This document shows, piece after piece, positions 3,782 through 19,957 of a stretch of 32,000 nt of DNA. The position numbers and the translations under genes are program-made. Positions within the stretch are counted from its first letter, which is position 1; the number at the start of each line of letters is the position of its first letter. The notes beneath the pieces are model-generated. The model did no database searches. It was not told the DNA's origin and was given only the letters and a program-made list of their open reading frames with translations. Origin of the DNA: Xylanibacter ruminicola 23 (lineage in GTDB: Bacteria; Bacteroidota; Bacteroidia; Bacteroidales; Bacteroidaceae); contig NC_014033.1 in assembly GCF_000025925.1 (NCBI RefSeq), positions 2,250,001 to 2,282,000 on the forward strand, read 5' to 3'.

Positions 3782-4747
3782 CTACTTTTCTTTTGGGGGA
3801 TATTTAGGCTTCCTACCCAGAGCCGTTTGCCCGATAAAGCCATTAAGTTGGTTAGGCAGTTTAAAATTCAAAGCAGCGTTAGTCTGATTCATCAGGGCTG
3901 TATTCAAGAAGTACACATTCAGTTTTTCACTGTTACAGAAAATGCCCAGTTTCTCGCTATTTGTAACACGACCAGCAAGTACCATATTCAGATTAGTACT
4001 CAAATTGAGCTTATTGCAAATCATTGTGTTCAGGCGCATCACCTTCTGTGTAGCATCGGCATGGGCACCGAGTGCGGCCTCGGCCTTTTCTGATGTCAGC
4101 AGGTAGCCCTTTTCGTCAAGTGCCTTTGCATCTTCTTTATTAGCTTCGAGAGCAGCGGTCAGCTTCTGATAGTCAACCCACTGGTCGCGCACCAGCTTCA
4201 ACTGGTCGCTACCCTTGGCATTGGCCAGATACTTGTCGGTAGTCTCGATAAACTGGTCGGCCAGTGCATTCTGCTTCTGCAGCTGGGTGTAGGCCAGCGA
4301 GGCATTGATGGTGTTCTGTGTCAGTTCGGGGCATTCCTCACCACTCAGAGCTTTTTCCATTTGCTTGCCAACATCGTTCAGCTGTGCATTCACATTGTTA
4401 ACCATTTTGCCAATCCCATTCATCTTCTGAATCAGCGGTGCATACTCGGGAATCTTGCCAGCCACCTGGTTCGACAGGTCAACCAGACTGGCAAACTGCT
4501 CAGAGCGTAACTGCATCAAAGCATAAGACATCACCATCCCTTCCTGATAATCTGAATCGGTCCTCAGCAACTCTTCCATATTAGTTAGCTTCTCGGCGTC
4601 GGCGTCACGAGAGAAACGGGCCACCTTACCAATGTCGCCTTCGGTCTTACTAACGTCAACGGGCCAATTGATTGAATTCGACAACACAAATCCAGCAACA
4701 ACGACTACTGCTGCAACACTTAGGATAATTAACGTTTTTTTCTTCAT
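3782..4747 (-). CDS. Hypothetical membrane-anchored, helix-rich protein (321 aa)
   Basis: ORF with N-terminal anchor MKKKTLIILSVAAVVVVAGFVL. The rest is Q/N/K/E/A-rich and helix-like. I recognise no catalytic motif. It is the first gene of the minus-strand operon. Confidence 0.6.
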   Translation of the reverse strand: MKKKTLIILSVAAVVVVAGFVLSNSINWPVDVSKTEGDIGKVARFSRDADAEKLTNMEELLRTDSDYQEGMVMSYALMQLRSEQFASLVDLSNQVAGKIPEYAPLIQKMNGIGKMVNNVNAQLNDVGKQMEKALSGEECPELTQNTINASLAYTQLQKQNALADQFIETTDKYLANAKGSDQLKLVRDQWVDYQKLTAALEANKEDAKALDEKGYLLTSEKAEAALGAHADATQKVMRLNTMICNKLNLSTNLNMVLAGRVTNSEKLGIFCNSEKLNVYFLNTALMNQTNAALNFKLPNQLNGFIGQTALGRKPKYPPKEK

Positions 4748-4775
4748 AACAATATTGCTTTAGGTTATATGGCTG

Positions 4776-4783
4776 CAAATTTA
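4776..4783 (-). promoter_or_regulatory. Bacteroidota -7 promoter box (TAaaTTTG on minus strand) for the 4747..1 operon
   Basis: Plus strand caaattta equals minus-strand TAAATTTG. It lies ~30 nt upstream of ATG 4747. Confidence 0.5.
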
Positions 4784-5084
4784 AGCAAAAAAATAATACG
4801 GTGCAAGTTTTTTAGGAAAATTACACCTTATTATATATAATATGGATGCATATGCATTTATTCATGCATATTATCTGCATAAAACCAATAGGCATAGTAA
4901 GAGTTTAAGCCGATAAAAACAGAAAATGAAAGCAAATATTGCGTTTAACTTTCAGATTGTAATTAAAAAGCATTTTTATACTTTTTGATTGACATAAATC
5001 AAGCCACCAAGAATAAAAATGCAAAATTTAGGGTCGAAGTGTGATTTTTTTATAATTTTATTTGTTTTTTAGACTTATATACCA

Positions 5085-5145: not shown

Positions 5146-8100
5146 ATGAAAAAAAGTCTAACAATGTTGATGGTCAGCCTTTTCCTGTTTGTAGGAACAG
5201 CGCTGGCACAGACTAAGATTACTGGTACGGTGCTCTCACAAGAGGACGGTCAGCCCATTATCGGTGCTGCCGTTAAAGTTGTTGGCACAAGTACTGGTAT
5301 GTTGACAGATGTAAACGGTAAGTTCTCACTGACACTGCCAGAGGGTAAGAAGTCACTGACGATTTCTTATCTTGGCTTTGAGAGCAAGACTGTAAACGCC
5401 AAGAACGGTATGCGCGTTTTCCTGAAGGCCGACGCACAGGTTGTTGACGAGGTTATCGTAGTAGCCTTCGGTCAGCAGAAGAAGTCAGCGTTCACAGGTT
5501 CAGCTGCAGTAGTAAACTCAGAAGACCTGAAGAAGCACACCGTATCTAACGTAACCAACGCACTTGCCGGTTCGGTAGCAGGTTTGCAGTTGCGTGGTGG
5601 TTCTGGTGCCCCTGGTGCCGGCAATGCCGAAATCAGCATCCGTGGTATCAGCTCGCTTTATAGCGAAACCACCCCACTTGTTATCGTTGATGGTGCACCT
5701 TATCCCGCATCACTGAGCAATATTCCTGCCGAGGATATCGAGTCGGTATCAGTTCTGAAGGATGCTGCCAGTGCAGCTCTGTATGGTGCCCGTGGTTCGA
5801 GTGGTGTAATCATCATCACCACCAAGAAGGGGCAGAAGGATCAGACCAAGATTAATGTAGATGTAAAATGGGGTGCTAACAGCCGCGCCGTTCAGGAGTA
5901 CGATAAGATTACCGATCCAGCTCAGTTCTACGAGGCTTACTACTCTCAGCTCTACAACTATGGCTACTATGGCCAGGGCATGAGCAACGCTGCCGCCAAC
6001 CAGTGGGCCAACAGCACCATGCTGAATCACCTGGGTTACAATATCTACACAGTGCCCGAGGGCCAGCAGCTCATCGGTCTTGATGGTAAGATTAACCCTT
6101 CAGCCACATTGGGCCGTAAGTACACCGACGAGAACACTGGTGAGACTTACTACATGACTAGCGACGATTGGGCCGATGCTGCTTACAAGACAGCCCTGCG
6201 CCAGGAGTACAACGTAAGCATCTCGTCTGGTAACGAGAAGGCTAGCTTCTACGCCAGTCTGGGTCACCTTGACGAGGATGGTATCATCGAGTACTCAAGC
6301 TACAAGCGTACCACAGCCCGTATCAAGGCCGACTATCAGGTTAAGCCTTGGATGAAGCTGGCTGCCAACGTTGGTTATGTACACTCTAAACAGTACAGTA
6401 ACCCTAACATGAGCACTGACTGGGGTTCTACTAACTTGATGTACTACACATCTTACATTGCACCTATCTATCCTATCTACGTACGCGTGATCGACCCAGC
6501 AACAGGTCAGCCAGTGATCCGTACCGACGAGAACGGCAATCCACACTACGACTATGGTGTGCCAGGTACTAACTATCATGGTGCCAGCCGTGGATTCCTG
6601 CAGACAGGTAACCCACTTGGTTCAAACCGCTACAACGAGACTTACAACATCGGCAACCAGCTGAATGGTAACTTCTCATTGGATATCAACATTCTGAAGA
6701 ACCTGAAGTTCAACGCCACCAGCACTATCATTCTGGGTCAGACCTCATACTCTTGGTACGACAACGCCCTTTACGGACCAAAGGTTGTAGCTAACGGTGA
6801 GTTGAAGAAGGAGCAGATCAACACCCTTCGCCAGAACCACGTTCAGACACTGACTTATGCTCAGGACTTCGGTCTGCATAGCGTTACATTGATGGCAGGT
6901 CACGAGTACTGGAATCAGACTTCACGCGACCTCACTGGTCTTGCTCAGGGTGGATTCAGCGCAGATATTAAGGAACTGAATGCTTTTGCCGGTAAGAACC
7001 AGGCACAGGTAACCAGCTACACCAACGAGTACAACGTTGAAGGTTACTTTGCTAACGCTCAGTACAGCTACGACGACAAGTACTTCGGAAGCGCTTCATT
7101 CCGTCGTGATGCTTCTTCACGCTTTGCCAAGGATAAACGTTGGGGTTCATTCTGGTCAGTAGGTGGTGCATGGATCATCTCTAAGGAGAAGTTTATGCAG
7201 AGCACTAAGGGCTGGTTGGATATGCTGAAGATTAAGGCCTCTATCGGACAGCAGGGTAATGATAACACTTCGAGCTTTGCTTATGTAGATACCTACTCAC
7301 TGACTCCTGCTTCATCTACTCAGATGTCGCCTTCATTCCGTCAGATTGGTAACCCCGACATCACATGGGAGACCCTGACCAACGCCAACATCGGTCTTGA
7401 GTTCGGTTTGTTCAAGAACCGCATCCAGGGTAGCATCGACTTCTACTACAAGAAGACTACCGACCTGCTGTTCTGGCTGTCAATTCCTGAGTCTGCAGGT
7501 ACACGTGGTTACTATGGTAACGTAGGTGACATCCGCAACCAGGGTATCGAGTTCAGCCTCACTGCCAATATCATCCGCAGCAAGCTGGTTGACTGGAGTG
7601 TATCAGCCAACATTTCTCACAACGCAACTAAGATTCTGAGTCTGCCTGATTCAAAGATTGGTGAGAACGGTGGTTTCTACGAGAGCAACTACTGGTACAC
7701 CGTAGGTGGCCCATTGAACAACTATATGAACTATGCTTATGCAGGTGTTAACGACAAGGGTGAGGCCCTGTACTACTACGATGAGGATCTGAGTCCTGCT
7801 GGTGGTAAGGTTTCAACCAACGTTATCAGCAAGCCTGGTACCAAGAAGAGCGGCACTACAACCCTGATTGGTGAGGCTTCGCGTTACACCGACAACGGCT
7901 CTACCCTGCCAAAGGCATTCGGTGGATTCAGCTCTAACCTGCGTGTAGGCGACTTCGATGCTTCGGTATCATTCGACTATCAGATTGGTGGTAAGGTTTA
8001 CGATTCAGGCTATGCTAAGCTGATGACTCCTGCCAGCTCTTCTTCTGATGCTGGTTACAACTACCACAAGGACATCCTGAAGGCATGGTCGCCCACCAAC

Positions 8101-8403
8101 ACCAACAGCGACATTCCTCGTTTCCAGTATGGCGACCAGTACTCTGCCTACAGTTCTGACCGTTGGCTCACCAATGCCAGCTATCTGAACTTCCAGTCGT
8201 TCACTGTTGGCTACACAGTACCTAAGAAGCTCGTTACCCCACTTGGCATCAGCAACATCCGCGTTTATGCTGCGGGCGAGAACCTCTGCTTCTGGTCAGC
8301 TCGTAAGGGCTTCGACCCACGCTACTCTTACAAGAGCACAGCTTCTACCAACGTTTATTCACCTGTACGCACAATCTCAGGTGGTGTTCAGCTGACATTC
8401 TAA
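5146..8403 (+). CDS. SusC/RagA-family TonB-dependent outer-membrane transporter (unit 1, 1085 aa)
   Basis: It has a signal peptide, then a carboxypeptidase-regulatory-like N-domain (TGTVLSQEDGQPIIGAAVKVVGTSTG), a TonB box/plug region (DEVIVVAFG...), and a terminal ...GGVQLTF. A susD-like gene follows directly. Confidence 0.95.
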   Translation: MKKSLTMLMVSLFLFVGTALAQTKITGTVLSQEDGQPIIGAAVKVVGTSTGMLTDVNGKFSLTLPEGKKSLTISYLGFESKTVNAKNGMRVFLKADAQVVDEVIVVAFGQQKKSAFTGSAAVVNSEDLKKHTVSNVTNALAGSVAGLQLRGGSGAPGAGNAEISIRGISSLYSETTPLVIVDGAPYPASLSNIPAEDIESVSVLKDAASAALYGARGSSGVIIITTKKGQKDQTKINVDVKWGANSRAVQEYDKITDPAQFYEAYYSQLYNYGYYGQGMSNAAANQWANSTMLNHLGYNIYTVPEGQQLIGLDGKINPSATLGRKYTDENTGETYYMTSDDWADAAYKTALRQEYNVSISSGNEKASFYASLGHLDEDGIIEYSSYKRTTARIKADYQVKPWMKLAANVGYVHSKQYSNPNMSTDWGSTNLMYYTSYIAPIYPIYVRVIDPATGQPVIRTDENGNPHYDYGVPGTNYHGASRGFLQTGNPLGSNRYNETYNIGNQLNGNFSLDINILKNLKFNATSTIILGQTSYSWYDNALYGPKVVANGELKKEQINTLRQNHVQTLTYAQDFGLHSVTLMAGHEYWNQTSRDLTGLAQGGFSADIKELNAFAGKNQAQVTSYTNEYNVEGYFANAQYSYDDKYFGSASFRRDASSRFAKDKRWGSFWSVGGAWIISKEKFMQSTKGWLDMLKIKASIGQQGNDNTSSFAYVDTYSLTPASSTQMSPSFRQIGNPDITWETLTNANIGLEFGLFKNRIQGSIDFYYKKTTDLLFWLSIPESAGTRGYYGNVGDIRNQGIEFSLTANIIRSKLVDWSVSANISHNATKILSLPDSKIGENGGFYESNYWYTVGGPLNNYMNYAYAGVNDKGEALYYYDEDLSPAGGKVSTNVISKPGTKKSGTTTLIGEASRYTDNGSTLPKAFGGFSSNLRVGDFDASVSFDYQIGGKVYDSGYAKLMTPASSSSDAGYNYHKDILKAWSPTNTNSDIPRFQYGDQYSAYSSDRWLTNASYLNFQSFTVGYTVPKKLVTPLGISNIRVYAAGENLCFWSARKGFDPRYSYKSTASTNVYSPVRTISGGVQLTF

Positions 8404-8423
8404 ATTATAAAGGAGAGAAGAAT

Positions 8424-10109
8424 ATGAAAAATAAGATATTATCAATCATAGCAGCTGGCGCACTGATGACAGGCGCAACAAGCTGTATCAAGGAGATTGA
8501 CCCACAGACAAGTTACGCCACAAAGGATCAGGTGGCTAACGCTCCAGGTGCTTTCGACAACGCCGTTAGCGCCATCACATCAACACTCGCCGGACAGTTT
8601 GTTTACGACAGTGGCGACACTCGTGCTAACGACTTCGGACTGCCTGCATTCTTCCTGATGCGCGACGTTTCTGGTCAGGACATTGCTTATCCATACATCA
8701 ACTGGTTTGGTGCTTGGTATGGTGCCGACCACCTGGGTCCAAGCTGGGCTAACTCACAGTACCCCTGGACTTACTACTTTAAGTGGATTAAGAGCTGTAA
8801 CGAGGTTATCTCGCTGGCTGGCGAGGAACCCGATGCCGATAAGAAGGCTGGCGCAGGTCGCGCTTACTTCTATCGCGCATACTTCTATCTCGATCTGGCC
8901 CGCATGTTCGCTCAGAAGCCTTATGGTGCTGACAAGAATTCGGAGACAGTTCCCATCGTGACAGAGAAGACAGCTGTTGCCGACCTGGCAAACAACCCAC
9001 GTGCCACTAACGAGGAGATGTATCAGTTCATCCTGAGCGACCTCGACAAGGCCGAGGAATATCTGGCTGGTTACAAACGCGAGAACAAGTATGTACCCGA
9101 TCAGAGCGTCGTTTACGGTATGAAGGCCCGTGTATATCTTGACATGCAGGATTGGGCAAATGCCGAGGCTTATGCCAAGAAGGCTCAGACAGGTTATACG
9201 CTGATGAGTGCCGACGAGTACACCGATCAGGAAACTGGTTTCAACACACCTAACGGTGCCTGGATGCTGGGACTTACCTATAAGAGCGACGATCCTAACA
9301 TCACTAAGAACGACGGTGACTCAAGCTGGGGTTCAATGATGTGTATCGAGATCGACCCTGTAGCTTCTGGTTGCGGTTACGCAGCTAACTACGGTCAGCC
9401 ATTCTGCATCGACTACCACTTGTATCAGACAATCCCTGCAACCGACTGCCGCAAGAAGTGCTACGTTGACTTTGCTATCGACGATATGGCCACTCGTGCC
9501 GAGAAGTTAGAGGCCCTCTCTGCTTACAGTGCACACCCCGATTGGCTGCTCGATGGTTCAGGTACAGCCGCTCATGGTAGAGGTTACATCTATACCGTTG
9601 GTGGTCTGCCTCTGAAGTTCCGTGTTGCCGGTGGCGAGGCTGGTCGTGCTAACCAGTACATCGGTTGGGTAGTAGCAGTACCTATGATGCGCGTAGAGGA
9701 GATGTACCTGATTGAAGCCGAGGCTGCTGGTATGCAGAACGAGGCTCGTGGTATCGAGTTGCTGACCAAGTTTGCTAAGACTCGCGACGCCAACTACGAG
9801 TATGGCACTCACAACGAGGCTTACTACAACACCTCTACCTCTAAGTTCCAGAACGAGTGCTGGTGGCAGCGTCGTGTTGAGTTCTGGGGCGAGGGCTTGG
9901 CTACATTCGACATCAAGCGCCTCCAGAAGGGTATCATCCGTAGCTATGCAGGTACAAACCACGCCGACCAGTACCAGTGGAACGTAGAGACCACTCCAGA
10001 ATGGATGAATCTGTGTATCGTACAGACAGAGACTAACTACAACAATGCTTGTACCAACAACCCAGAGCCAATTGCTCCATCAGGAAACTCTGCTCCATAC
10101 GCTTGGTAA
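8424..10109 (+). CDS. SusD/RagB-family outer-membrane lipoprotein (unit 1, 561 aa)
   Basis: It has a lipobox (LMTGATSC), sits 20 nt after susC, and has SusD-like TPR-type helices (RAYFYRAYFYLDLARMF, EEMYLIEAEA). Confidence 0.9.
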   Translation: MKNKILSIIAAGALMTGATSCIKEIDPQTSYATKDQVANAPGAFDNAVSAITSTLAGQFVYDSGDTRANDFGLPAFFLMRDVSGQDIAYPYINWFGAWYGADHLGPSWANSQYPWTYYFKWIKSCNEVISLAGEEPDADKKAGAGRAYFYRAYFYLDLARMFAQKPYGADKNSETVPIVTEKTAVADLANNPRATNEEMYQFILSDLDKAEEYLAGYKRENKYVPDQSVVYGMKARVYLDMQDWANAEAYAKKAQTGYTLMSADEYTDQETGFNTPNGAWMLGLTYKSDDPNITKNDGDSSWGSMMCIEIDPVASGCGYAANYGQPFCIDYHLYQTIPATDCRKKCYVDFAIDDMATRAEKLEALSAYSAHPDWLLDGSGTAAHGRGYIYTVGGLPLKFRVAGGEAGRANQYIGWVVAVPMMRVEEMYLIEAEAAGMQNEARGIELLTKFAKTRDANYEYGTHNEAYYNTSTSKFQNECWWQRRVEFWGEGLATFDIKRLQKGIIRSYAGTNHADQYQWNVETTPEWMNLCIVQTETNYNNACTNNPEPIAPSGNSAPYAW

Positions 10110-10132
10110 TTCATGTTATAACCACTTAAAAG

Positions 10133-10963
10133 ATGAACAAAATGAAAAAGTATTTATATAACATCATGTTCGCCTTCGTTGGAATACTTGCCCTCACGGC
10201 ATGTAAAGACGAGAGAGGAACAGAGCCCGGAACCGACAGCAATCCTGTTGTAACCATCTATCAGTATGATGCTCAGCTGCCTTTGAGCACCGACAACGAT
10301 TGCGTTGTACGCGTGGCAGCCAACAGTTCTGTTGAGTCGGCCTACTATCTGGCCGAGAAAGCCGACGACAAAGCCGCTCGCAATCTTGCACCCGATGCTT
10401 ATGCCGACTATGTAGTAAGCAATGGTACAAAGATCGACAACCTGTCGGCAGGTAACCCTGTAGATCTGACCCTTACCGGTATGATGGGCGACTACGTTAT
10501 CACCGTTGTAGGTGTTAAAGGTAGCACCAAGTACGCTACCGAGACATCGTTCAAGGGTCTCGACTGGCGCGATATCGCTACTGGTACCTACACCTTCGCT
10601 AAGCCAGCCGCTACTGGCCAGACAAGCACTACAGCCACACTGCAGTATTGCGCTAACGTAGATGGTTTGTACCGTATCAAGGACGTATTTGGCGCTGGCT
10701 ACTCACTGAAGTTCACCGGCACAGGTATGAAGGGTACCGACAAAACTGGTAATTACGAAGTAGTTCGCGTAGCAGCTCAGCCTATTGGTAAGACCTACGG
10801 CAACTACGGCGATGTAAGCGTTCGCGACCTTGCTACCTGGCAGAACACAGACGACTATCTCGACAACGCCATGTACGACGATGGCTATTGCTACTTCTGG
10901 GTACAGTACTTCGTATCTGCTGGTAGCCTTGGCTACGGTTACGATAAGTTTGTTCCTGAGTGA
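10133..10963 (+). CDS. Surface lipoprotein of unknown function (SusE/F-position accessory protein, 276 aa)
   Basis: It has a lipobox (ILALTACKDE), is the third gene of the unit, and has beta-rich composition. Confidence 0.7.
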   Translation: MNKMKKYLYNIMFAFVGILALTACKDERGTEPGTDSNPVVTIYQYDAQLPLSTDNDCVVRVAANSSVESAYYLAEKADDKAARNLAPDAYADYVVSNGTKIDNLSAGNPVDLTLTGMMGDYVITVVGVKGSTKYATETSFKGLDWRDIATGTYTFAKPAATGQTSTTATLQYCANVDGLYRIKDVFGAGYSLKFTGTGMKGTDKTGNYEVVRVAAQPIGKTYGNYGDVSVRDLATWQNTDDYLDNAMYDDGYCYFWVQYFVSAGSLGYGYDKFVPE

Positions 10964-11064: not shown

Positions 11065-11087
11065 CTGTAGCACTGTAGCGGTGTAGC
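11065..11087. repeat. YGCTACAG octamer array (3 units, CTGTAGC orientation)
   Basis: The sequence is CTGTAGCACTGTAGCGGTGTAGC. It matches 22/23 to the reverse complement of 30066-30088. Related arrays lie at 13609-13630 and 13725-13746. Confidence 0.8.
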
Positions 11088-11183
11088 AAAAGTGTTGCGC
11101 ACAGACAACATAATTTTATAAAAAGTGTTGCGCGCAAGCAACATTTTTATCAAAAAGTGTTGGTTGTATGCAACATTTTTATT
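11088..11183 (+). promoter_or_regulatory. Three tandem 32-bp units, each carrying TGTTG-N8-CAACA (candidate operator array)
   Basis: The units are AAAAGTGTTGCGCACAGACAACATAATTTTAT, AAAAAGTGTTGCGCGCAAGCAACATTTTTATC and AAAAAGTGTTGGTTGTATGCAACATTTTTATT. They abut the -7 box of the ATPase gene. Confidence 0.6.
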
Positions 11184-12573: not shown

Positions 12574-12604
12574 AATGCTTTTAATAGTCAATGGTTAATA
12601 ATTT

Positions 12605-12698
12605 GGCACGGATTAACACGGCTTTATAAATAAAGACACGGCTTTTGTCGATGAAAAAAGAGCTGCGTTTCTCAAAAGAGAGCCGTGTAATCCGTGCC
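12605..12698. repeat. Palindromic 94-bp element, copy 1 (between the HU-like gene and the small ORF)
   Basis: The sequence is GGCACGGATTAACACGGCT...TCTCAAAAGAGAGCCGTGTAATCCGTGCC. The outer arms are inverted repeats. Copies 2 and 3 are at 15693-15787 and 16136-16229. Confidence 0.9.
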
Positions 12699-12703
12699 TA
12701 AAC

Positions 12704-13252
12704 TCAATCTCCGATTGGCTCGTGACTGCCGCCACCCTGGTTGCCGCCGGTGTTCTGACCGTTGCCACCGGTGTTACCGTTGTCGGTGGTGTTGCCGCTC
12801 TCAGGGTCCTCGATGTCGCTGCTGTCGCCACTGGTTACGCGCTTCAGTACGGTGCCGTCCTCGTCAAGGCAGGTAATCTGGATGCTGGTGTTCTTCAGCT
12901 CGTCCTTCACATCCACCGATGGGGTGAACACAATGCGACGGGTGGTAATCAGTCCGGTCTTCACGTCATCGAGCTTCTCAACGGCCTTGGCGCGCACGCC
13001 GAATCGCATGGTTCCCAGTCCGGGCACGGGTACCGAATGGCCCTCGGTGGCCCAGGTACGGATAACGGCGCCTGCTGCCTCCCATGCAGCCTTGATAACA
13101 CCTGCGCTAATGCCCGAGTGGGTGGCTGCCTCGGTAAACACCTTCTTCTCGGCGATGGCGCTGTACAGGTCGGGGCGCATCACGAAACGCTTGGCCCCAG
13201 GGTTCTTGCCGATCTTAAGCTCTCGGCGCTGTGCAATAACTTTGATACTCAT
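12704..13252 (-). CDS. Bacteroidales-type HU-like DNA-binding protein with G/N-rich acidic tail (182 aa)
   Basis: MSIKVIAQRRELKIGKNPGAKRFVMRPDLYSAIAEKKVF...VPVPGLGTMRF resembles the HU/IHF-fold 'putative DNA-binding protein' common in Bacteroides islands. The tail is NTTDNGNTGGNGQNTGGNQGGG. Confidence 0.75.
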   Translation of the reverse strand: MSIKVIAQRRELKIGKNPGAKRFVMRPDLYSAIAEKKVFTEAATHSGISAGVIKAAWEAAGAVIRTWATEGHSVPVPGLGTMRFGVRAKAVEKLDDVKTGLITTRRIVFTPSVDVKDELKNTSIQITCLDEDGTVLKRVTSGDSSDIEDPESGNTTDNGNTGGNGQNTGGNQGGGSHEPIGD

Positions 13253-13373
13253 AGGATAGTAAAATTAAAAAATTAAAAAATTAAAGAATTAAAAAATGTA
13301 ATAATTATAGGATTGTAAATAATTTTTAAATTTTATCATTTTTACATTTTTACATTGTTCTGAGTTCGGGTTC

Positions 13374-13791: not shown

Positions 13792-13799
13792 TATATTTG
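13792..13799 (+). promoter_or_regulatory. -7 promoter box TAtaTTTG for the MNT/HEPN operon
   Basis: The context is gtatatttgcacc, 22 nt upstream of ATG 13821. Confidence 0.55.
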
Positions 13800-13820
13800 C
13801 ACCATACAAAGCAATTAGTT

Positions 13821-14147
13821 ATGAACAATAGTAAAGTTATCGACAGTATTAAGCAGGTGGCCGAAAGGGTCTTACCCAAGGGTAGTCTGTTGTATCTCTA
13901 TGGGTCGCGTGCACGTGGAGACTGGCACGACGGTTCTGATTGGGATCTTCTGCTGATACTTGATAAGCCACGTCTTGAGCATGAGGATTTTAATAAGTAT
14001 TCCTATCCGTTTGTTGAAATGGGATGGGATATAGGCGAGGATATTCGTCCCCATGCATATACTAAGCAAGAGTGGTTTGATGGTCCACATGCTATGTTCT
14101 ATTATAATGTAGAAGAAGACAAACAAGTATTGTATGGAACTAAGTGA
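13821..14147 (+). CDS. Minimal nucleotidyltransferase (MNT-type, antitoxin-like) protein, 108 aa
   Basis: It carries the pol-beta NTase signature LYLYGSRARGDWHDGSDWDLLLIL. I moved the start to ATG 13821 because the TTG at 13797 lies inside the promoter box. Confidence 0.85.
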   Translation: MNNSKVIDSIKQVAERVLPKGSLLYLYGSRARGDWHDGSDWDLLLILDKPRLEHEDFNKYSYPFVEMGWDIGEDIRPHAYTKQEWFDGPHAMFYYNVEEDKQVLYGTK

Positions 14148-14541
14148 TAACGAGAGATCAACCATCGTACGCATGGAAATGGAGAAGGCACGCAAAACTT
14201 TTGCCGATATGGAATTTTGTGCCAAAGAGCAGAAATGGGAGGCTGCTGCCAATCGCCTGTACTATGCTTTGTTTCATGCGGTATCAGCCTTACTTATCAG
14301 TGGCGGTCAGAATGTAAAAAGTCATCGTGGCATCATGTCTCTTTTCGGACAGCATTATGTTCGTACAGGACTATTTACGAGCGAAGATGGTTCACTCCTC
14401 TCTGACCTTGTGATTATGCGCGATAACGCAGACTATAACCTATTCTTTGAGGCGAACGAGGAGAAAATCACTCCCTATATTGAGCCCACAAGACTGCTGA
14501 TTGATAAGATAGCAGAATTTGTTATTCCTAAAAACTCTTAA
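14134..14541 (+). CDS. HEPN-domain protein (135 aa), partner of the MNT gene
   Basis: It overlaps the MNT gene by 14 nt. NRLYYALFHAVSALLISGGQNVKSHRGIMSLF and VIMRDNADY are typical of MNT-associated HEPN proteins. Confidence 0.8.
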   Translation: MELSDNERSTIVRMEMEKARKTFADMEFCAKEQKWEAAANRLYYALFHAVSALLISGGQNVKSHRGIMSLFGQHYVRTGLFTSEDGSLLSDLVIMRDNADYNLFFEANEEKITPYIEPTRLLIDKIAEFVIPKNS

Positions 14542-14580
14542 TTATAACCTGCAGTTTTTGGTGGGTGCGAAGGTTTTTAT

Positions 14581-14588
14581 TATCTTTG
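14581..14588 (+). promoter_or_regulatory. -7 promoter box TAtcTTTG for the S24 peptidase gene
   Basis: The context is tttattatctttgcagcc. It lies inside the GTG-extended ORF, which argues for the downstream ATG 14667 as the true start. Confidence 0.5.
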
Positions 14589-14666: not shown

Positions 14667-15479
14667 ATGAGAAATTTTAGTAGCATCGGTCAGTGGCCGA
14701 TGGAAATGGTGTGCGACACACCCGTGCCTTACTACGAAGTGGGAGTTAGTTGTGGACTGCCTGGCGAAATGGGGGAGCTGCCACCCGAGATGGTGCTGCT
14801 GCCCAGCATGCTGACGCGTGGCCGGCAAGTGTTTATCGTGGATGCCGATGGCGACTCGATGACCGGCGTGGGCATTTACAGTGGTGATGCGCTGCTGATA
14901 GAGAGTACACAGCGGGTGCACTGCGGCGAAGTGGTGATGGTGAGCATCGACGGCGAGGAGCTGTTGAAGGTGTATTACGTTGACGACACGGGGCGCCACT
15001 GGCTGTTGGCCGCCAACCCGAAGTACCAGCCACGCGAACTAACGGCCGACATGAATGTACGCATCTGCGGGCGCATGGTGTGCAACCTGAGTGCGCCGCA
15101 CGTATCGGTAAAGCACTGTGGCGAAGTGGTACGCCAGTTTAAAGCCAAGCAGAAGCAGCACCAGCCCGACATGTATGAGCGCCTGACCGAAGCCGTTATC
15201 CAGTGCAGTCATCTGTTTTGGGCAGCATCGGCCTGGGCAGTGGTTTTCGGTGTACTGCGCGATAAATACAGTTATGACAAGCCAGTTGCCGAGTTTGAGC
15301 GTATGGCCCAGGCCTTAAAGCTACCTGCTACGTTTAGGTTTGTATGTGGCGAAGGCAGTGTGCAGCGCACCATCAGTAATCATGAGTACATGCGAAAGAG
15401 TATCGACAAGTGGGAGGAGCAAGGTGCTGCCGACCGCGAACTGAAGCTGATGACGGTTTTAATTAAAGAATTGGCTTAG
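14667..15479 (+). CDS. S24 (UmuD/LexA-type) self-cleaving peptidase domain fused to a ~130-aa C-terminal domain of unknown function (270 aa)
   Basis: It has GDSM (Ser nucleophile), a Lys in EELLKVYY, and a Cys29-Gly30 candidate cleavage site (VGVSCGLPGE) like UmuD Cys24-Gly25. There is no N-terminal HTH. The C-terminal part QCSHLFWAASAWAVVFGVLRDKYSYDKPVAEFERMAQ... is unrecognised. Confidence 0.75.
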   Translation: MRNFSSIGQWPMEMVCDTPVPYYEVGVSCGLPGEMGELPPEMVLLPSMLTRGRQVFIVDADGDSMTGVGIYSGDALLIESTQRVHCGEVVMVSIDGEELLKVYYVDDTGRHWLLAANPKYQPRELTADMNVRICGRMVCNLSAPHVSVKHCGEVVRQFKAKQKQHQPDMYERLTEAVIQCSHLFWAASAWAVVFGVLRDKYSYDKPVAEFERMAQALKLPATFRFVCGEGSVQRTISNHEYMRKSIDKWEEQGAADRELKLMTVLIKELA

Positions 15480-15481
15480 TT

Positions 15482-15565
15482 TTACCGAACCTGTTACCGA
15501 ACTTCGGTAAGTATTAGTACCAAAGTTACCGAAACCTACAACACTTACCGAAAACTGTTACCGAA
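15482..15565. promoter_or_regulatory. Array of six TTACCGAA sites (one inverted, forming a 17-bp perfect palindrome)
   Basis: TTACCGAA occurs at 15482, 15494, 15526, 15545 and 15558, and TTCGGTAA at 15503. Positions 15494-15510 read TTACCGAACTTCGGTAA. The array starts 2 nt after the S24 stop codon. Confidence 0.7.
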
Positions 15566-15598
15566 TGCGTTCCAAGAAATTGGAGCGCATTATTTTTT
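15565..15598 (+). terminator. Rho-independent terminator after the S24 gene and site array
   Basis: The stem is ATGCGTTCCAA-gaaa-TTGGAGCGCAT (one G-T pair), followed by TATTTTTT. Confidence 0.65.
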
Positions 15599-15602
15599 GC
15601 CA

Positions 15603-15610
15603 TACTTTTG
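15603..15610 (+). promoter_or_regulatory. -7 promoter box TActTTTG for the antirepressor gene
   Basis: The context is gccatacttttgcagcg. It implies a ~210-nt leader that contains palindromic element copy 2. Confidence 0.45.
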
Positions 15611-15692
15611 CAGCGTGATTCAGTTCACGAGTGTTCTTTGACTTACTGCCACACCAACCCGACTCGGAATCGGCCGAGCGGATTTATTCTTA

Positions 15693-15787
15693 GGCACGGA
15701 TTTACACGGCTTTATAAATAAAGACACAGCTGTTATCAATGAAAAGAAAGCAGCGTTTCTCTAAAAGAGAGCCGTGTCATCCGTGCC
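15693..15787. repeat. Palindromic 95-bp element, copy 2 (5' leader of the antirepressor gene)
   Basis: The sequence is GGCACGGATTTACACGGCTTTATAAATAAAGACACAGCT...TCTCTAAAAGAGAGCCGTGTCATCCGTGCC. The left flank GAGCGGATTTATTCTTA resembles the left flank of copy 3. Confidence 0.9.
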
Positions 15788-15826: not shown

Positions 15827-16591
15827 ATGGAAACAATGATTATTAAAACAGTAAACGAGAACCAACACATGATGACTTCGCTGGAAATAGCTGAAGTAAC
15901 CGGTAAGCAGCACTGTCACGTAATGGAGGCCATCCGAAAAATGGAACCCGCGTGGCAGAAAGTTAATCAATCAAATTTTCGATTGATTGAATATACCGAC
16001 AGTCGAGGTCGACTGATGCCCTGCTACCAGCTAACCAAGACCGAGACGCTCTACATCGCCACCAAGTTTAACGACGAGGCCCGCGCCCGACTCGTTCTGC
16101 GTTGGGAAGAACTGGAACGCGAGCGGATTATTTTTGGCACGGATGACACGGCCTTTTTAAAAAAGGACACGGCTTATATCGATGAAGAAAGCAGCGTCTC
16201 TCTAAAAGAGAGCCGTGTTAATCCGTGCCTAAGAAAACTTCCATCGTTGGGCGTTCAGAAACAGATACTGGCGATGGCGGATGAGATTGTGGGTACGGGA
16301 CTGCGCATGCTGAACGAGCCTGCCGAGGATACACTCACCGCCACGCAGGTGGCCAAGACGTTTAACATGAACACCCGCGACTTTAATGCCGTGCTGGCCG
16401 ACATGAACATTCAGTACCGCGCCCACGGCCGATGGCACCTGGCCGAACACCTGCTGGGTAGGGGCTACACCGCCGAACGTACACACATCGACTACTCGCT
16501 GAAAGGCAAGCGCAAAATCAAAGTGTACATGACGTGGACCATGGCCGGACTGAAGTACCTTAACTCGCAATTGGGATACCCTAACCTTTAG
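15827..16591 (+). CDS. Rha-family N-terminal domain fused to a KilAC/ANT-like antirepressor C-terminal domain (254 aa)
   Basis: MTSLEIAEVTGKQHCHVMEAIRKM...YQLTKTETLYIATKFNDEARARLVLRWEELE is Rha-like. The C-terminal TATQVAKTFNMNTRDFNAVLADMNIQY...GLKYL is KilAC-like. The linker is encoded by repeat copy 3. Confidence 0.75.
   Translation: METMIIKTVNENQHMMTSLEIAEVTGKQHCHVMEAIRKMEPAWQKVNQSNFRLIEYTDSRGRLMPCYQLTKTETLYIATKFNDEARARLVLRWEELERERIIFGTDDTAFLKKDTAYIDEESSVSLKESRVNPCLRKLPSLGVQKQILAMADEIVGTGLRMLNEPAEDTLTATQVAKTFNMNTRDFNAVLADMNIQYRAHGRWHLAEHLLGRGYTAERTHIDYSLKGKRKIKVYMTWTMAGLKYLNSQLGYPNL
16136..16229. repeat. Palindromic 94-bp element, copy 3, in frame inside the antirepressor CDS (residues 104-134)
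   Basis: GGCACGGATGACACGGCC...TCTCTAAAAGAGAGCCGTGTTAATCCGTGCC translates as GTDDTAFLKKDTAYIDEESSVSLKESRVNPC with no stop. Confidence 0.9.
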
Positions 16592-16592
16592 G

Positions 16593-16627
16593 ACATTAAA
16601 CATTAAAGATTAAACATTAAACATTAA
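16593..16627. repeat. Heptamer array (ACATTAA/AGATTAA x5)
   Basis: It starts 2 nt after the antirepressor stop. The 7-nt period places TAA in all three frames. Confidence 0.9.
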
Positions 16628-16628
16628 A

Positions 16629-16709
16629 GGCCTCGATTAAGCGAGAGCAGAGCCAAGCTTGCTTGAGCTTTGCCGAGTGTGAGAGGGCTCGATACGAAGT
16701 ATCAACATT
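16629..16709 (+). repeat. 81-bp repeat, copy A, ending 5 nt before the lysozyme ATG
   Basis: GGCCTCGATTAAGCGAGAGCAGAGCCAAGCTTGCTTGAGCTTTGCCGAGTGTGAGAGGGCTCGATACGAAGTATCAACATT matches 19491-19571 at 80/81 positions. The single difference is 16678 T versus 19540 C. Confidence 0.95.
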
Positions 16710-16714
16710 TTACT

Positions 16715-17179
16715 ATGCAGATTACAGACACACTTTTACAGAAATTGATGGAGATGGAGGGATGCCGACTAAGCGCTTATCGCGACGAGGGCGGCGTGCC
16801 TACCATCGGCTACGGACACACACGCGGTGTGCGCATGGGCGACCGCATCAGCCCCCAGCAGGCTCGCGACTGGCTGCTACAGGATGCCACCGAGGTGATG
16901 CGACAGGTGCGACGCCTGCACGTGGCACGCACCGAGGCGCAACTAGAGGCACTCACATCGTTTGCCTTTAACGTGGGCATCGGACGGCTGAAGCAGTCAA
17001 CCCTGCTCAAAACCATCCGCCAAGGCGGCAGCAAGGCTGCCATCCAGCGCCAGTTTAAACGATGGGTGTATGCCGGCGGTAGCAAGTTGCCCGGTTTGGT
17101 AGCCCGTCGCCAATGGGAGGCCGAACACTTCTTCGCCCCCAGCTACCCAACGGATGACGAAATCATCGACCGGGTGTGA
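16715..17179 (+). CDS. GH24 phage-type lysozyme (endolysin-like, 154 aa)
   Basis: The T4/lambda-type lysozyme signature is LMEMEGCRLSAYRDEGGVPTIGYGHTRGV, followed by ALTSFAFNVG. I moved the start to ATG 16715 because the track ORF starts at a TTG inside the 81-bp repeat. Confidence 0.85.
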   Translation: MQITDTLLQKLMEMEGCRLSAYRDEGGVPTIGYGHTRGVRMGDRISPQQARDWLLQDATEVMRQVRRLHVARTEAQLEALTSFAFNVGIGRLKQSTLLKTIRQGGSKAAIQRQFKRWVYAGGSKLPGLVARRQWEAEHFFAPSYPTDDEIIDRV

Positions 17180-17207
17180 ACATTAAACATTAAAGATTAA
17201 ACATTAA
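17180..17207. repeat. Heptamer array (ACATTAA/AGATTAA x4)
   Basis: It lies immediately after the lysozyme TGA and runs up to the primase-helicase start. Confidence 0.9.
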
Positions 17208-17216
17208 AGATTGGCT

Positions 17217-19475
17217 ATGAGCACACACATTATTTATTTAAAGGACGGGGTGAAAATGATGCGCCCCGTAACCACCCGCGCAGAGTATATGGCCCTGCGC
17301 GGCAGTAACGAACAGCAGCAACTGATGGCCGCCATACGCAGCGGCAACGAGACGTTGAAGCACCGGCTGGTGCAGATGAACTACAGTTGTCTGCCCAATG
17401 CCGACGGCACACTGCGCGGCAGCACCCGTATGAGCAATACCGTGGGTATGGATATCGACCACCTATCGGCCGAAGAGATGCCCGCCGTTCGCGAGCGCAT
17501 CCTGGACAAGAAGGATGAGCTGGGACTAGGGATGCTTGAGGAGAGTGCCCGCGGCTGTGGCTACCACCTGGTGTTTACCCGACGGCCGCACATGTCGCAG
17601 GTAGAGAACCTGCAGTGGGCCGCCCAGCTGCTAGGCGTGGACTACGATGCCCAGGCCAAGGACATCACCCGCGTGTTCTTCACCACCGGCACCGAGCAGC
17701 TTATCTATCTGGATGATGCCATCTTTGAACTCCCGTCCTCGGAAAGTTGTGACAAGGGACAGGGCCCAGTCACATTCTGTGACAGGTACCAGTCCCCAGT
17801 CACAAAGACTGATTCCGTTGACAATTTTCAAGAAGGAAAAATCCTAAAGTCCTGTATTCCGTTGCAAAAAGATTACAACGGCATGGCTTTCTCGGATATT
17901 ATCGCAAAGTATTGGGAGCTGTTTAACGGTGGCAAGCTGCCGGTGGTGGGCGATAGGAACGCACTCACCTTCGAGTTGGCCGTTACCCTGCGCTCTATCT
18001 GCGGCTACAGTCTGGAGGGCCTGCAGGCCATCGTACCCAACTACTGGGCTGCACCCGATGGCACCTGCACCGATGCCGACCGCACCGAATATCTGCACAC
18101 ACTGGAAAACGCCCTGAAAGAGCCCCGCCGCGGCATGCCCCTGCGCCTGAAACAGGTATTGCAGGCACTCAAGGAGCAGCAAGGTGTAAAGGCCTGCGGG
18201 GGTACCGTAAGCACGCCTCCACCCATGCCCAAGCGGTTGCCGCCATTGATAAAACTGCTAACCCGCAACGTGCCGTGGTACTACAAGCCCGCTGTGGCCA
18301 GTGCCGTGTTTCCTGCCCTGGGCGCCCATCTGCATGGCGTACACTTCCGCTATTGGGACAACGTGGATCACGAGGCCACGTTTATGAACCTGCTGGTGGG
18401 CCGACAGAGCGTGGGTAAGGGCTCGATCAAAAAGCCCATCGAGTATATCATGGAGGACATACGCCAGCACGACCTGCTCAGTCGCCAGCGCGAGGCCGAG
18501 TGGAAGCAGAAGAACCCCACTGGCAAGCAGAAGAAGGACCCGCGCCCCGCCGACATCTGCATTCAGATGCTGATAGACAACCTGACCGACGCCGTGTTTA
18601 ACCAGCGCGTGGTGGATGCCAACAACAACGGAGAGCGCTACATCTACACCATTGTAGACGAGGTAGAGGCTCTGAAGAAGGTGACATCGAGCCATAAGGC
18701 CGACGAGGTGGGACTGCTGATACGAAAGGCTTTCGACAACTCGATGGCAGGTCAGGAGCGTGTGGGTGCCGACAGCGTATCGGGCATAGCACCGCTGCGC
18801 TGGAACTTCAACGCCAGCACCACCCCACCCAACGCGCGCAAGTTCTTTTATAAGATGGTGAACGATGGCACGGTGAGCCGACTGGATGTGGCCACCATCA
18901 TCCGTCCCATCGAAGACGACGACGAGGCACCCATCCTGGGCATCTACGACGACCGTTTTGCCGCCGAGCTCAAACCCTATATCGACCGTCTGGATGCTGC
19001 CAACGGACTGATAGAGTGCCCGCAAGCCCGCAAGCTGGCACTTGACCTGAAGCAGGAGAATGCCGACACCGCCCGCTTGTACGAGAGCGAGGCCTACCGT
19101 GTGCTGTCGTATCGTGCCAACGTGATAGCCTGGCTTAAGGGTATGGTGCTGTATGTGGCCCATGGCTACCGGTGGGACAAGCAGATAGCTGAGTTTGTGC
19201 GCTGGAGCGAGCAGTATAACCTATGGTGCAAGATGCTGTACTTTGGAACCCAGCTTGAGAAGGAGCTGAACGACGAGCAGGAACTGCAGCGCCACTCGGG
19301 TCCCCAGAACCTGCTGGAGCTGCTACCCGATGAGTTTACCCGCGAGCAGTATCTGCAGATGCGCCAGCAAGCCGGCCGCCCCGGTCCCGGCGACAGCACC
19401 CTGCGCACCTGGCAAACCCGCGGCCACATAGCTTTTGATGAAACGGCAGGCCGTTTCCTCAAGATTAAACATTAA
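17217..19475 (+). CDS. VirE_N (BT4734-like) domain plus DUF3987-like P-loop region: putative primase-helicase (752 aa)
   Basis: The N-terminal region (MNYSCLPNADGTLRGSTRMSNTVGMDIDH...GYHLVFTR...ITRVFFTTG) resembles the VirE N-domain family of Bacteroides. It has a P-loop-like VGRQSVGKGS and a Walker B-like YIYTIVDEVEAL. I prefer ATG 17217 over TTG 17211. The stop codon lies inside a heptamer array. Confidence 0.7.
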   Translation: MSTHIIYLKDGVKMMRPVTTRAEYMALRGSNEQQQLMAAIRSGNETLKHRLVQMNYSCLPNADGTLRGSTRMSNTVGMDIDHLSAEEMPAVRERILDKKDELGLGMLEESARGCGYHLVFTRRPHMSQVENLQWAAQLLGVDYDAQAKDITRVFFTTGTEQLIYLDDAIFELPSSESCDKGQGPVTFCDRYQSPVTKTDSVDNFQEGKILKSCIPLQKDYNGMAFSDIIAKYWELFNGGKLPVVGDRNALTFELAVTLRSICGYSLEGLQAIVPNYWAAPDGTCTDADRTEYLHTLENALKEPRRGMPLRLKQVLQALKEQQGVKACGGTVSTPPPMPKRLPPLIKLLTRNVPWYYKPAVASAVFPALGAHLHGVHFRYWDNVDHEATFMNLLVGRQSVGKGSIKKPIEYIMEDIRQHDLLSRQREAEWKQKNPTGKQKKDPRPADICIQMLIDNLTDAVFNQRVVDANNNGERYIYTIVDEVEALKKVTSSHKADEVGLLIRKAFDNSMAGQERVGADSVSGIAPLRWNFNASTTPPNARKFFYKMVNDGTVSRLDVATIIRPIEDDDEAPILGIYDDRFAAELKPYIDRLDAANGLIECPQARKLALDLKQENADTARLYESEAYRVLSYRANVIAWLKGMVLYVAHGYRWDKQIAEFVRWSEQYNLWCKMLYFGTQLEKELNDEQELQRHSGPQNLLELLPDEFTREQYLQMRQQAGRPGPGDSTLRTWQTRGHIAFDETAGRFLKIKH

Positions 19476-19489
19476 ACATTAAACATTAA
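19462..19489. repeat. Heptamer array (AGATTAA/ACATTAA x4) that contains the primase-helicase stop codon
   Basis: The sequence is AGATTAAACATTAAACATTAAACATTAA. The last codons, K-I-K-H-stop, are encoded by the array. Confidence 0.9.
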
Positions 19490-19490
19490 A

Positions 19491-19571
19491 GGCCTCGATT
19501 AAGCGAGAGCAGAGCCAAGCTTGCTTGAGCTTTGCCGAGCGTGAGAGGGCTCGATACGAAGTATCAACATT
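19491..19571 (+). repeat. 81-bp repeat, copy B, 17 nt before ATG 19589
   Basis: It is 80/81 identical to 16629-16709. Confidence 0.95.
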
Positions 19572-19587
19572 AAACATTAAAGATTAA
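19567..19587. repeat. Heptamer array (ACATTAA x2, AGATTAA x1)
   Basis: It lies directly upstream of ATG 19589. Confidence 0.85.
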
Positions 19588-19588
19588 A

Positions 19589-19957
19589 ATGGAACACATT
19601 GATAACACACAAGAAACGTTTGTGGCACTGTGGCGGCTGTTGCGCCGCACGCGCCGCTACTGCCATCTGCACTGCAAGCGCTTTTGCATCCGCAGGGTAC
19701 TGCAACTATGGTTTGGTGGCGAGGCCACCCCCGAGTTTATCTGGCAAGTATGCCACCTTTGCTGTCAGGCCGGTTGGGACCAGCTCCCACCGCCTGGCCT
19801 CTACCCGCGCCCGCATCGCGAACTGCTGCGTGCCATCGTGGCCGTGCGCACAGGCATCAGCTACTACCAGATTGACCTGCGCGCCCTCGACGCCGCCTAC
19901 ACCATCGCCTACCCCAAAAGCACACCACTGAACGTGAACAAAAAGAAGAAATCTTAA
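19589..19957 (+). CDS. Hypothetical Cys/Arg/Trp-rich protein (122 aa); a DUF4248-like role is possible from its position after the VirE-like gene, but sequence does not support it
   Basis: It is the longest of four overlapping ORFs in a GC-rich stretch. It is the only one preceded by the same 81-bp repeat plus heptamer leader seen before the lysozyme gene. I recognise no motif. Confidence 0.4.
   Translation: MEHIDNTQETFVALWRLLRRTRRYCHLHCKRFCIRRVLQLWFGGEATPEFIWQVCHLCCQAGWDQLPPPGLYPRPHRELLRAIVAVRTGISYYQIDLRALDAAYTIAYPKSTPLNVNKKKKS

Follow-up and report, generated by a model that had tools for sequence, protein, structure and literature searches.

What reads a cluster of six short repeats that fills the gap between one gene and the promoter of the next operon? 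The question is raised by a 32,000-nt stretch of Xylanibacter ruminicola 23 (contig NC_014033.1, positions 2,250,001 to 2,282,000, forward strand), the whole of which is called the window here and is numbered from its first nucleotide. Copies of the octamer TTACCGAA are crowded there between a gene encoding an S24 peptidase domain followed by an additional C-terminal domain (CTD) and the promoter of an operon for a Rha-type antirepressor, a lysozyme, and a primase-helicase. The TTACCGAA sites are real and conserved. We give about an even chance to the explanation that the array is a matching double-stranded DNA operator for the CTD, which would control the downstream promoter, with the S24 domain as its likely DNA-damage input. 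The array and its surroundings comprise the following elements (coordinates, strand, description).

14557-14588, + strand: S24 gene promoter of the Bacteroidota -33/-7 type, with TTTG at 14557-14560, a 20-nt spacer, and TATCTTTG at 14581-14588
14667-15479, + strand: S24-CTD gene, 270 aa (Pfam PF00717 at 3e-20), stop codon TAG at 15477-15479
15482-15489, + strand: site 1, TTACCGAA, in the distal cluster, 2 nt past the S24 stop codon
15494-15510: sites 2 (+ strand) and 3 (- strand, 15503-15510), forming a perfect 17-bp palindrome, TTACCGAACTTCGGTAA
15526-15533, + strand: site 4, TTACCGAA, which opens the promoter-proximal trio
15545-15552, + strand: site 5, TTACCGAA
15558-15565, + strand: site 6, TTACCGAA, its final 2 bases within the terminator stem
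15564-15598, + strand: intrinsic terminator of the S24 gene, with a 12-bp stem and a 4-nt loop (15564-15591) and a T-run (15593-15598)
15603-15610, + strand: -7 box TACTTTTG (TAnnTTTG type) of the promoter of the Rha-lysozyme-primase operon
15614-15655, + strand: conserved leader, with a small hairpin CGTGATTCAGTTCACG followed by the box TTTGACTTACTGCCACACC

The initial annotation had described five direct copies and one inverted copy of TTACCGAA in 84 bp, at a density beyond chance. The exact-match count agrees, with six matches in the window, all of them within 15482-15565. In dinucleotide-preserving shuffles of the whole window the octamer occurred 0.70 times on average and three times at most, and none of the 100 shuffles reached six, as the claim about density would have it. 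No second TTACCGAA cluster was detected anywhere in the window when one mismatch was allowed. A non-trivial 7-mer in five copies was absent from all 135-nt background windows taken from family loci (n = 3150); at least three copies of a 7-mer were observed in 4% of these and in 12 of the 17 windows placed after the stop codons. The remaining description of the array was likewise confirmed from the sequence: it starts 2 nt after the S24 stop codon, includes the perfect palindrome, and reaches the terminator stem, whose hairpin overlaps site 6 by 2 nt, and the promoter box directly follows the terminator.

The terminator hairpin is the dominant element of the RNA fold. It is fully paired in six of six class A loci (the loci sharing the TTACCGAA motif, described below), and its sole changes are U-A/U-G and C-G/U-G, which indicates that it works as a sense-strand RNA hairpin, i.e., as a terminator. 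The predicted TACTTTTG promoter is of the sigma-ABfr type, having a TAnnTTTG box with ATTG 20 nt upstream. This ATTG (15579-15582) is a 3/4 match to TTTG, lies in the hairpin loop and 3' arm at the -33 position, and a role as the -33 element may explain the conserved terminator loop. The sites of the array all lie between about 50 and 130 bp ahead of the promoter start, and none overlaps the promoter. In most family loci the TAnnTTTG box is found 10-13 nt past the start of the T-run, independent of the repeat motif; the exceptions are L104 (a near-match, TAATTTCG), L105 (31 nt after the T-run start), and L185 (none seen), and the contigs of L018 and L019 stop short of the box position. The TAnnTTTG box of the S24 gene promoter recurs, together with "GCAGCC", upstream of homologous genes. 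In the conserved leader, the hairpin keeps its position and varies in sequence among loci, and a box TTTGACTTAyTGAyACA is kept in L005, L008, L101, L102, and L181; the hairpin and the box may form a second control site. A separate leader of about 80 nt (GAGTTG..GAGG..TTCTTCTC..CAACTC-like), which the window does not have, was observed directly upstream of ANT or first operon genes in several loci (L008 7205-7285, L007 3225-3305, L104 ~5950-6040, and L105 ~1180-1270); it is a candidate structured RNA leader and has no Rfam match.

Conservation of the array was traced through related loci. In four genome loci with S24 proteins 90-92% identical the array is nearly unchanged. More distant S24 proteins share 70% (L005), 64% (L007), 46% (L008), 43% (L101), and 42% (L102) identity with that of the window, and the array, whose absence from homologous islands would have told against the initial annotation, is present at every homologous S24 gene with recovered downstream sequence, down to 42% identity. 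In the six class A loci (S24 proteins 42-100% identical), the sites are located at -83, -71, -62 (inverted), -39, -20, and -7 from the hairpin. Site 1 (-83) is kept in four of the six and is degenerate in L007 and L008, the palindrome sites (-71 and -62) are present in all six, and the three promoter-proximal sites are essentially invariant: site 4 does not vary at all, site 5 has one mismatch in L005 and a 1-nt shift in L101, and site 6 reaches a pairwise identity of 96%. Pairwise identity amounted to 83% for the sites and 94% for the hairpin, with 45% for the spacers and 54% for the adjacent coding sequence. The palindrome half-sites drift independently with no compensatory changes, and the inverted copy, where it has changed (L007, L008, and L101), still resembles the motif, whereas complementarity to the partner site is not preserved. 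An RNA hairpin at the palindrome was rejected, as pair counts did not support it. Within ~5 kb on each side the motif was confined to the array in nine of 11 loci checked; in L015 and L104, scanned with shorter cores of 6-7 nt, copies outside the array were at chance level. Five true family loci were recognized among the matches listed from a metagenome scan, the remainder being generic S24 domains, and the exact-array DNA pattern was not found in IMG/VR.

The protein encoded upstream of the array combines two domains. Its S24 peptidase domain (residues ~27-138) is UmuD/LexA-like, and Foldseek matched it to UmuD' and LexA at E~1e-6; for the full-length model, matches ran through the S24 domain alone. 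The Cys29-Gly30 pair (in the UmuD-like context VSCGLP), Ser64 (GDSM), and Lys101 are invariant in 25 homologues, and residues 1-38 form a short segment modelled as disordered. No helix-turn-helix (HTH) family was found in the protein by Pfam. The CTD (residues ~172-270) is an all-helical domain of ~100 residues, modelled with a pLDDT of ~94. It gave no match in Pfam (sub-threshold noise), NCBIfam, PHROGs, or PDB sequences (E<=10), and a known fold was rejected because Foldseek returned noise only, with best values of E=2.8 against PDB and E=2.4 against BFVD. A CTD profile recovered 360 cluster representatives among 1.84 billion, and in the matches listed the domain was located at or near the C-terminus. 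Many of these proteins are stand-alone CTDs of ~150-170 aa, others are fused to S24, and several have unassigned N-termini. Two longer proteins (~450 aa each) carry the CTD at the end: P0211 has an N-terminal HIRAN domain, and the N-terminal sequence of P0165 resembles that of P0211 without a Pfam match. HIRAN domains recognise DNA 3' ends or damaged DNA, and the fusion, as judged from domain composition, is a second link between the CTD and DNA-damage sensing. UmuD identity was rejected for the protein of the window, which has 270 aa with an extra C-terminal region of ~130 residues, compared with the S24-only UmuD of ~140 aa; the NCBIfam UmuD model scored 56 bits against a cut-off of 110, and no umuC/dinB-like gene was present among the open reading frames (ORFs) of the window. 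A phage origin of the CTD was also rejected: there was no tblastn match in 50,697 GenBank phage records, and scans of IMG/VR gave generic S24 domains or nothing.

The same layout, namely a stop codon, 4-7 short repeats, a terminator, a TAnnTTTG promoter, and an operon with an AEP primase-helicase, is kept by genes with diverged CTDs, with or without an S24 domain. In class B (L012, L015, L020, and L104), where the S24 domain is ~47% identical and the CTD has diverged, the repeat is CTCCCA(T) in ~4-7 copies, and the order is stop codon, repeats, hairpin with T-run, TAACTTTG, and operon. Class B arrays are strand-asymmetric, being C-rich and G-poor, and in L012 the first repeat overlaps the last codons CTC CCA TAA. 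The stand-alone CTD genes of L181, L183, and L185 hold the same position in the module, each with its own array downstream. Further repeats were as follows.

L019: AACTCCCG / AACTCTACG
L018: TCACG(T/A)A plus CCTCCCATT
L105, a third CTD type: ATAACG, five copies
L181, stand-alone CTD gene: CTTTCTGA, four copies, copy 1 overlapping the codons ACT TTC TGA
L185, stand-alone CTD gene: CTTTCCGA, three to four copies
L183, stand-alone CTD gene: TACCTAAA, two copies, plus a 16-bp palindrome

Inverted copies are present in L018 and L185 as well. The spacing plan is common to the motif classes: a distal cluster at the stop codon with sites ~11 and 10 bp apart, a gap of ~29-32 bp, and a proximal trio spaced by 12 and 10, or 19 and 13. 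Such a common plan implies that the arrays are homologous and that all copies switched motif together, which requires a co-evolving reader. The long spacings lie near multiples of ~10 bp (P~0.02, for arrays of common ancestry), and helical phasing is a weak argument, because the arrays share ancestry and are not independent.

Candidate readers encoded within the module are the CTD protein, the ANT protein, small ORFs, the lysin, and the primase-helicase; of these, in the sequences compared, the CTD alone appears to be both constant and co-varying with the motif. As a change of CTD brings a change of motif, the CTD, and not Rha or HU, is the likeliest candidate binder. The initial annotation had placed an operator or iteron array before the antirepressor-lysozyme-primase genes; the conservation described above supports a protein-binding array of this kind, and the classical DNA-binding candidates, Rha and HU, give way to the CTD. 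In natural recombinants the motif tracks the CTD, and neither the S24 domain nor the Rha/Bro antirepressor nor the primase. In the chimeric protein P0011 of L018, an S24 domain of class-A-like type (72% identity) precedes a CTD resembling that of class B, and the array there consists of TCACG/CTCCCATT instead of TTACCGAA. In locus L183 the CTD (52-61% identity), the motif, and the terminator are all class-A-like, whereas the primase shares 64-65% identity with class B primases (L013 and L015) and 21-23% with those of class A. Within the CTD, all loci with the TTACCGAA motif share an unchanged segment, G-x-VQRTISNH-x-YMR, and A-like CTDs that go with other motifs differ in it (NKVNRTICDH in L183, GTIQSTLKNN in L181, and ETISKAIRTS in L185). 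The primase was rejected as the reader on the recombinant loci: its type is uncoupled from the motif in L183 and L008, and the replicase is therefore not what reads the array. The window and L008 have the same motif with primases 35% identical, and the window and L181 have different motifs with primases 40% identical.

These recombinants bear directly on a second proposal of the initial annotation, an origin-type iteron set for the primase-helicase, which the uncoupling in L183 and L008 disfavours. It is rather unlikely that the array is a replication origin with iterons bound by the CTD protein as an initiator or adaptor recruiting the downstream AEP primase-helicase, in which case transcriptional activation or cis-action would come from the promoter and terminator next to it. 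Iterons serve plasmid Rep proteins and, as octamers, the P4 alpha protein; the combination of direct repeats with an inverted copy is reminiscent of the iteron/operator pairs found with plasmid Rep, and an array starting at the stop codon would suit a cis-acting initiator, as in repA-CIS-oriR of plasmid R1. A primase-helicase homologue was found downstream in 10 of 10 loci with enough sequence and is the sole gene common to all operons, the presence of ANT and lysin genes being variable. The BT4734-like proteins belong to the AEP primases, and the DUF3987 fused to them in this module is a predicted helicase of mobile-element replication (PMC5862659). Besides the uncoupling, an origin is opposed by the apparent lack of an extended AT-rich unwinding region adjoining the array (only a ~20-bp T-run/promoter stretch is AT-rich nearby), by the synteny of the locus among X. 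ruminicola strains with no integrase or mobility gene seen, and by the tight, conserved coupling of the array to the terminator and the -7 box, which points to transcription control. Moreover, we know of no precedent for an S24 sensor fused to an initiator, which also counts against an origin.

Another protein could read the array, such as Rha/Bro-ANT, HU-HIG, a small downstream ORF product, or a chromosomal regulator, the CTD being a protein-interaction or sensor domain that co-varies by adjacency; this is quite unlikely. In its favour, CTD and array could be inherited together simply by being adjacent, the charge of the CTD is neutral, and HU-HIG genes are frequently nearby. The individual candidates, however, do not keep company with the motif: loci of one motif class differ in their ANT type (Bro-N in L007, pRha in L008 and the window), several loci have an array and no ANT gene, the window has no small ORFs past the promoter, and HU-HIG genes, from which sequence specificity is not expected, are absent from several loci. 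In addition, all 5-7 copies have changed together with the spacing plan kept, which needs a specificity determinant within the cassette, and the CTD is the sole constant candidate.

The array is transcribed, and the initial annotation had accordingly allowed for a role at the RNA level. The transcription stands, and the role is disfavoured. It is distinctly improbable that the array acts in the 3' untranslated region of the S24 mRNA, whether through the CTD as an RNA binder at the terminator (in the manner of TRAP/HutP), through mRNA stability, or through a small RNA derived from this region. Such an element would agree with the orientation of nearly all copies in the sense strand, with the sense-strand hairpin with G-U pairs in which the array ends and whose 5' arm is overlapped by the last repeat, with the strong strand asymmetry of class B arrays, and with a CTD that is not basic and matches no DNA-binding fold. 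Yet the conserved inverted copy (class A, L018, and L185) would be meaningless for single-strand recognition, and its changes are non-compensatory. In most loci the operon has a TAnnTTTG promoter past the terminator and thus no need of controlled read-through, and the repeat covers just 2 nt of the terminator stem. A known RNA family was rejected, as no gathering-score match was obtained with Rfam 15 in the window or in eight related loci (the best, E=0.54, being at chance level), and no complementary target sites were found within 5 kb. Conserved inverted copies, ~10-bp spacings, and a promoter placed after the terminator favour double-stranded DNA as the putative target. A non-functional repeat, arisen by slippage or duplication of the gene 3' end, is hardly credible: the first repeat does overlap the last codons in several classes (L012 and L181), but the positions are fixed, the sites are far better conserved than the spacers with proteins down to 42% identity, and the plan recurs with at least six different motifs.

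For the operator read by the CTD, the following course of events is proposed. Dimers mediated by the S24 domain, and probably higher oligomers, would occupy the distal cluster at the stop codon and the proximal trio, which ends ~50 bp upstream of the TACTTTTG promoter start. Their occupancy would set the activity of the promoter driving the Rha antirepressor, lysozyme, and primase-helicase genes, and the S24 domain would give the DNA-damage (RecA*) input via predicted cleavage at Cys29-Gly30. Starting from site conservation and co-variation, we infer all further steps, namely binding of the sites by the CTD, DNA as the target, the sign of regulation, and an altered occupancy upon cleavage. As for the sign, repression would be in keeping with LexA/CI logic and with cargo of phage type, and activation would also suit the upstream, roughly in-phase position of the sites. 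Binding of direct repeats by S24-family regulators is known and was counted in favour of an operator: alphaproteobacterial LexA binds the direct repeat GTTC-N7-GTTC in an 11-bp register (PMC8565304).

Several observations weigh against this explanation. The CTD fold has no relative of known function by Foldseek, and its core has a net charge near zero, an uncommon property in domains that bind nucleic acids. The sites lie upstream of the -33 region without promoter overlap, an atypical position for a LexA/CI-type repressor. The predicted Cys29-Gly30 cut would leave the CTD on the dimerising S24 core, so the inactivation logic of LexA is not directly transferable. No TTACCGAA-like site was found at the S24 gene's own promoter in exact and one-mismatch scans, which speaks against classical autoregulation. 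Among the stand-alone CTD genes, that of L186 has no array, and the palindrome of L183 differs in sequence from the direct repeats of the same locus. Finally, the coding end of the CTD adjoins the array, so part of the co-variation could be linkage and not co-evolution.

A wider interpretation of the operator and the CTD is tentative, and we place it somewhat below an even chance. The CTD would represent a new fold for sequence-specific DNA binding, and its specificity for 8-9 bp would have been re-set repeatedly, in step with the whole array. The regulator gene, array, terminator, and promoter would form exchangeable "immunity-like" cassettes gating an AEP primase-helicase module widespread in Prevotellaceae/Bacteroidales, and the S24-fused members would act as a LexA-like DNA-damage switch with reverse domain order.

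The array is surrounded by the following further genes; for S24, Rha-KilAC, lysozyme, primase, and HU-like genes the initial calls were supported by the Pfam families.

12704-13252, - strand: HU-HIG gene (Pfam)
15827-16591, + strand: Rha-KilAC (ANT) antirepressor-like gene (Pfam PF09669 and PF03374), the first gene of the operon
16670-17179, + strand: phage-type lysozyme gene (Pfam PF00959 at 8.5e-40)
17211-19475, + strand: gene for a BT4734-like AEP primase fused to a DUF3987-type helicase-like region (Pfam, PADLOC PrimPol)

In other operons Rha is replaced by Bro-N+ANT (L007 and L012) or ANT is absent (L015, L181, L183, and L185). SusC/SusD-like pairs flank the region. Among X. ruminicola strains, the locus differs by insertions and deletions of a nucleotidyltransferase/HEPN pair, a SusC/D unit, and small palindromic elements. 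The nucleotidyltransferase/HEPN pair (13797-14541) and the first SusC/SusD/276-aa unit (5146-10963) are missing from the syntenic X. ruminicola locus L001 and are strain-specific insertions or deletions. The window contains no tRNA gene, and no integrase or other mobility gene was seen among its ORFs; for this reason, tRNA/att-site context and arm-type recombinase sites were dropped as candidates. With no integrase seen and the module absent from viral collections, the locus is not an obvious prophage or satellite. Known defence systems did not account for the module either: the matches to PADLOC systems were confined to the neighbouring AAA ATPase (PDC-S01) and the nucleotidyltransferase (PDC-S09), with no module protein among them. 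The ATPase gene, of the AAA_14/DUF4143 type and matching the PADLOC candidate defence family PDC-S01, is preceded by three tandem units of ~31 nt with an internal palindrome (AAAAAGTGTTGCGCGCAAGCAACATTTTTAT) at 11087-11182.

Other repeats were observed in and around the operon. A palindromic element of ~100 nt (GGCACGGAT..ACACGGCT ... AGCCGTGT..ATCCGTGCC) has three copies in the window (12602-12698, 15686-15787, and 16137-16230). The copy at 16137-16230 lies in frame within the Rha-KilAC gene and adds ~30 residues relative to the L008 orthologue, and the copy at 15686-15787 is missing from L002, L003, and L004. L002 itself has copies at 3786-3886 and 5262-5348, one of them within the primase reading frame. 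This element of the window and L002 resembles the Rickettsia palindromic elements, as a small, seemingly mobile palindrome that can insert in frame. In L008, a palindromic element of ~100 nt in the leader (7080-7180) seems to recur, translated, within the primase (7963-10476), where the peptide MRQQDxLGICNPHG... appears twice in the protein alignment; matched at the peptide level, it would be a further case of in-frame repeat insertion. Tandem heptamers ATTAAAC/ATTAAAG are located at 16593-16639, 17180-17212, 19448-19494, and 19553-19599, just upstream of the starts of the lysozyme, the primase, and a 122-aa ORF, and an octamer array of AATTAAAA lies upstream of the HU-HIG gene (13255-13310); these tandem arrays could be AT-rich leaders or unwinding elements. 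The lysozyme-primase pair is bracketed by a 126-nt direct repeat with 93% identity (16599-16724 and 19461-19586), in the second copy of which the lysozyme 5' end appears again past the primase stop codon; the repeat may be a trace of duplication or cassette exchange. In L104, three direct repeats of ~38 nt (GCATTGGAAAAGTGTATGTTTTGGGCTGAAAAT) were observed upstream of the S24-CTD gene (4740-4860).

Genomes of Prevotella/Bacteroides hold many copies of the module, with an HU-like gene, a BT4734/DUF3987 primase-helicase, a lysin, and often an antirepressor. The module now gains a concrete candidate control element, as ~360 protein clusters with an undescribed domain are paired with their own short-repeat arrays before the operon promoter, and the array of the window represents a candidate switch before the primase-helicase operon in rumen and gut Prevotella-type bacteria. 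If the proposed operator is correct, the CTD would be a new DNA-recognition fold with natural specificity variants usable to decode recognition. It would also provide a second, architecturally reversed DNA-damage-responsive regulator in a phylum where SOS control has only recently been described, and the current annotation of such proteins as UmuD or "DNA polymerase V" (one source name) would be misleading.

The literature was searched for the module, the motif, and reversed S24 architectures, and no description was found. Going by the sequence evidence, the system is probably a regulator paired with its own operator array, the carrier being a new family of domains, and it can be compared with several known systems. 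The likeness to LexA, CI, and UmuD consists in the S24 fold, the Ser-Lys dyad, and the UmuD-like Cys-Gly cleavage motif; as with LexA/CI, the gene adjoins phage-like genes (antirepressor, lysin, and replicase). In contrast to LexA/CI, the domain order is reversed, the window protein having no N-terminal HTH/winged-helix and an extra domain at the C-terminus. There are 5+1 sites upstream of the promoter instead of one or two palindromes over it, and the predicted cleavage would remove just a ~29-residue arm. Unlike UmuD, the protein has no adjacent umuC gene. The published LexA motifs of Bacteroidota (GGA-N5-TCC, CTAA-N5-TTAG, and TTAC-AAATT-GTAA), which belong to regulators with N-terminal CI-like domains (PMC8565304), do not match the array, and a Bacteroidota LexA box was rejected. 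The array resembles the iterons of plasmid Rep and P4 alpha proteins in its short direct repeats with an inverted copy beside the presumed binder's gene and a primase-helicase module, and in a specificity that differs between related elements. It differs from plasmid iterons in having units of only 8-9 bp with no adjoining AT-rich region, in its position between a terminator and a non-replicase stop codon, and in a motif uncoupled from the primase. P2 Cox, 186 Apl, lambda Xis, and pSM19035 omega are small regulators that coat short-repeat arrays at a spacing of about one turn. They share with the system described here the control of an adjacent promoter by arrays of direct, occasionally inverted short repeats; however, they have winged-helix or ribbon-helix-helix folds, neither of which the CTD model matches, their sites overlap promoters, and no S24 sensor is attached to them. 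Phage or plasmid context and an integrase, which were not seen here, set apart the heteroimmune phage immunity regions and plasmid incompatibility groups, with which the system nevertheless has in common one layout, swappable protein/site specificities, and cassette recombination (L018 and L183).

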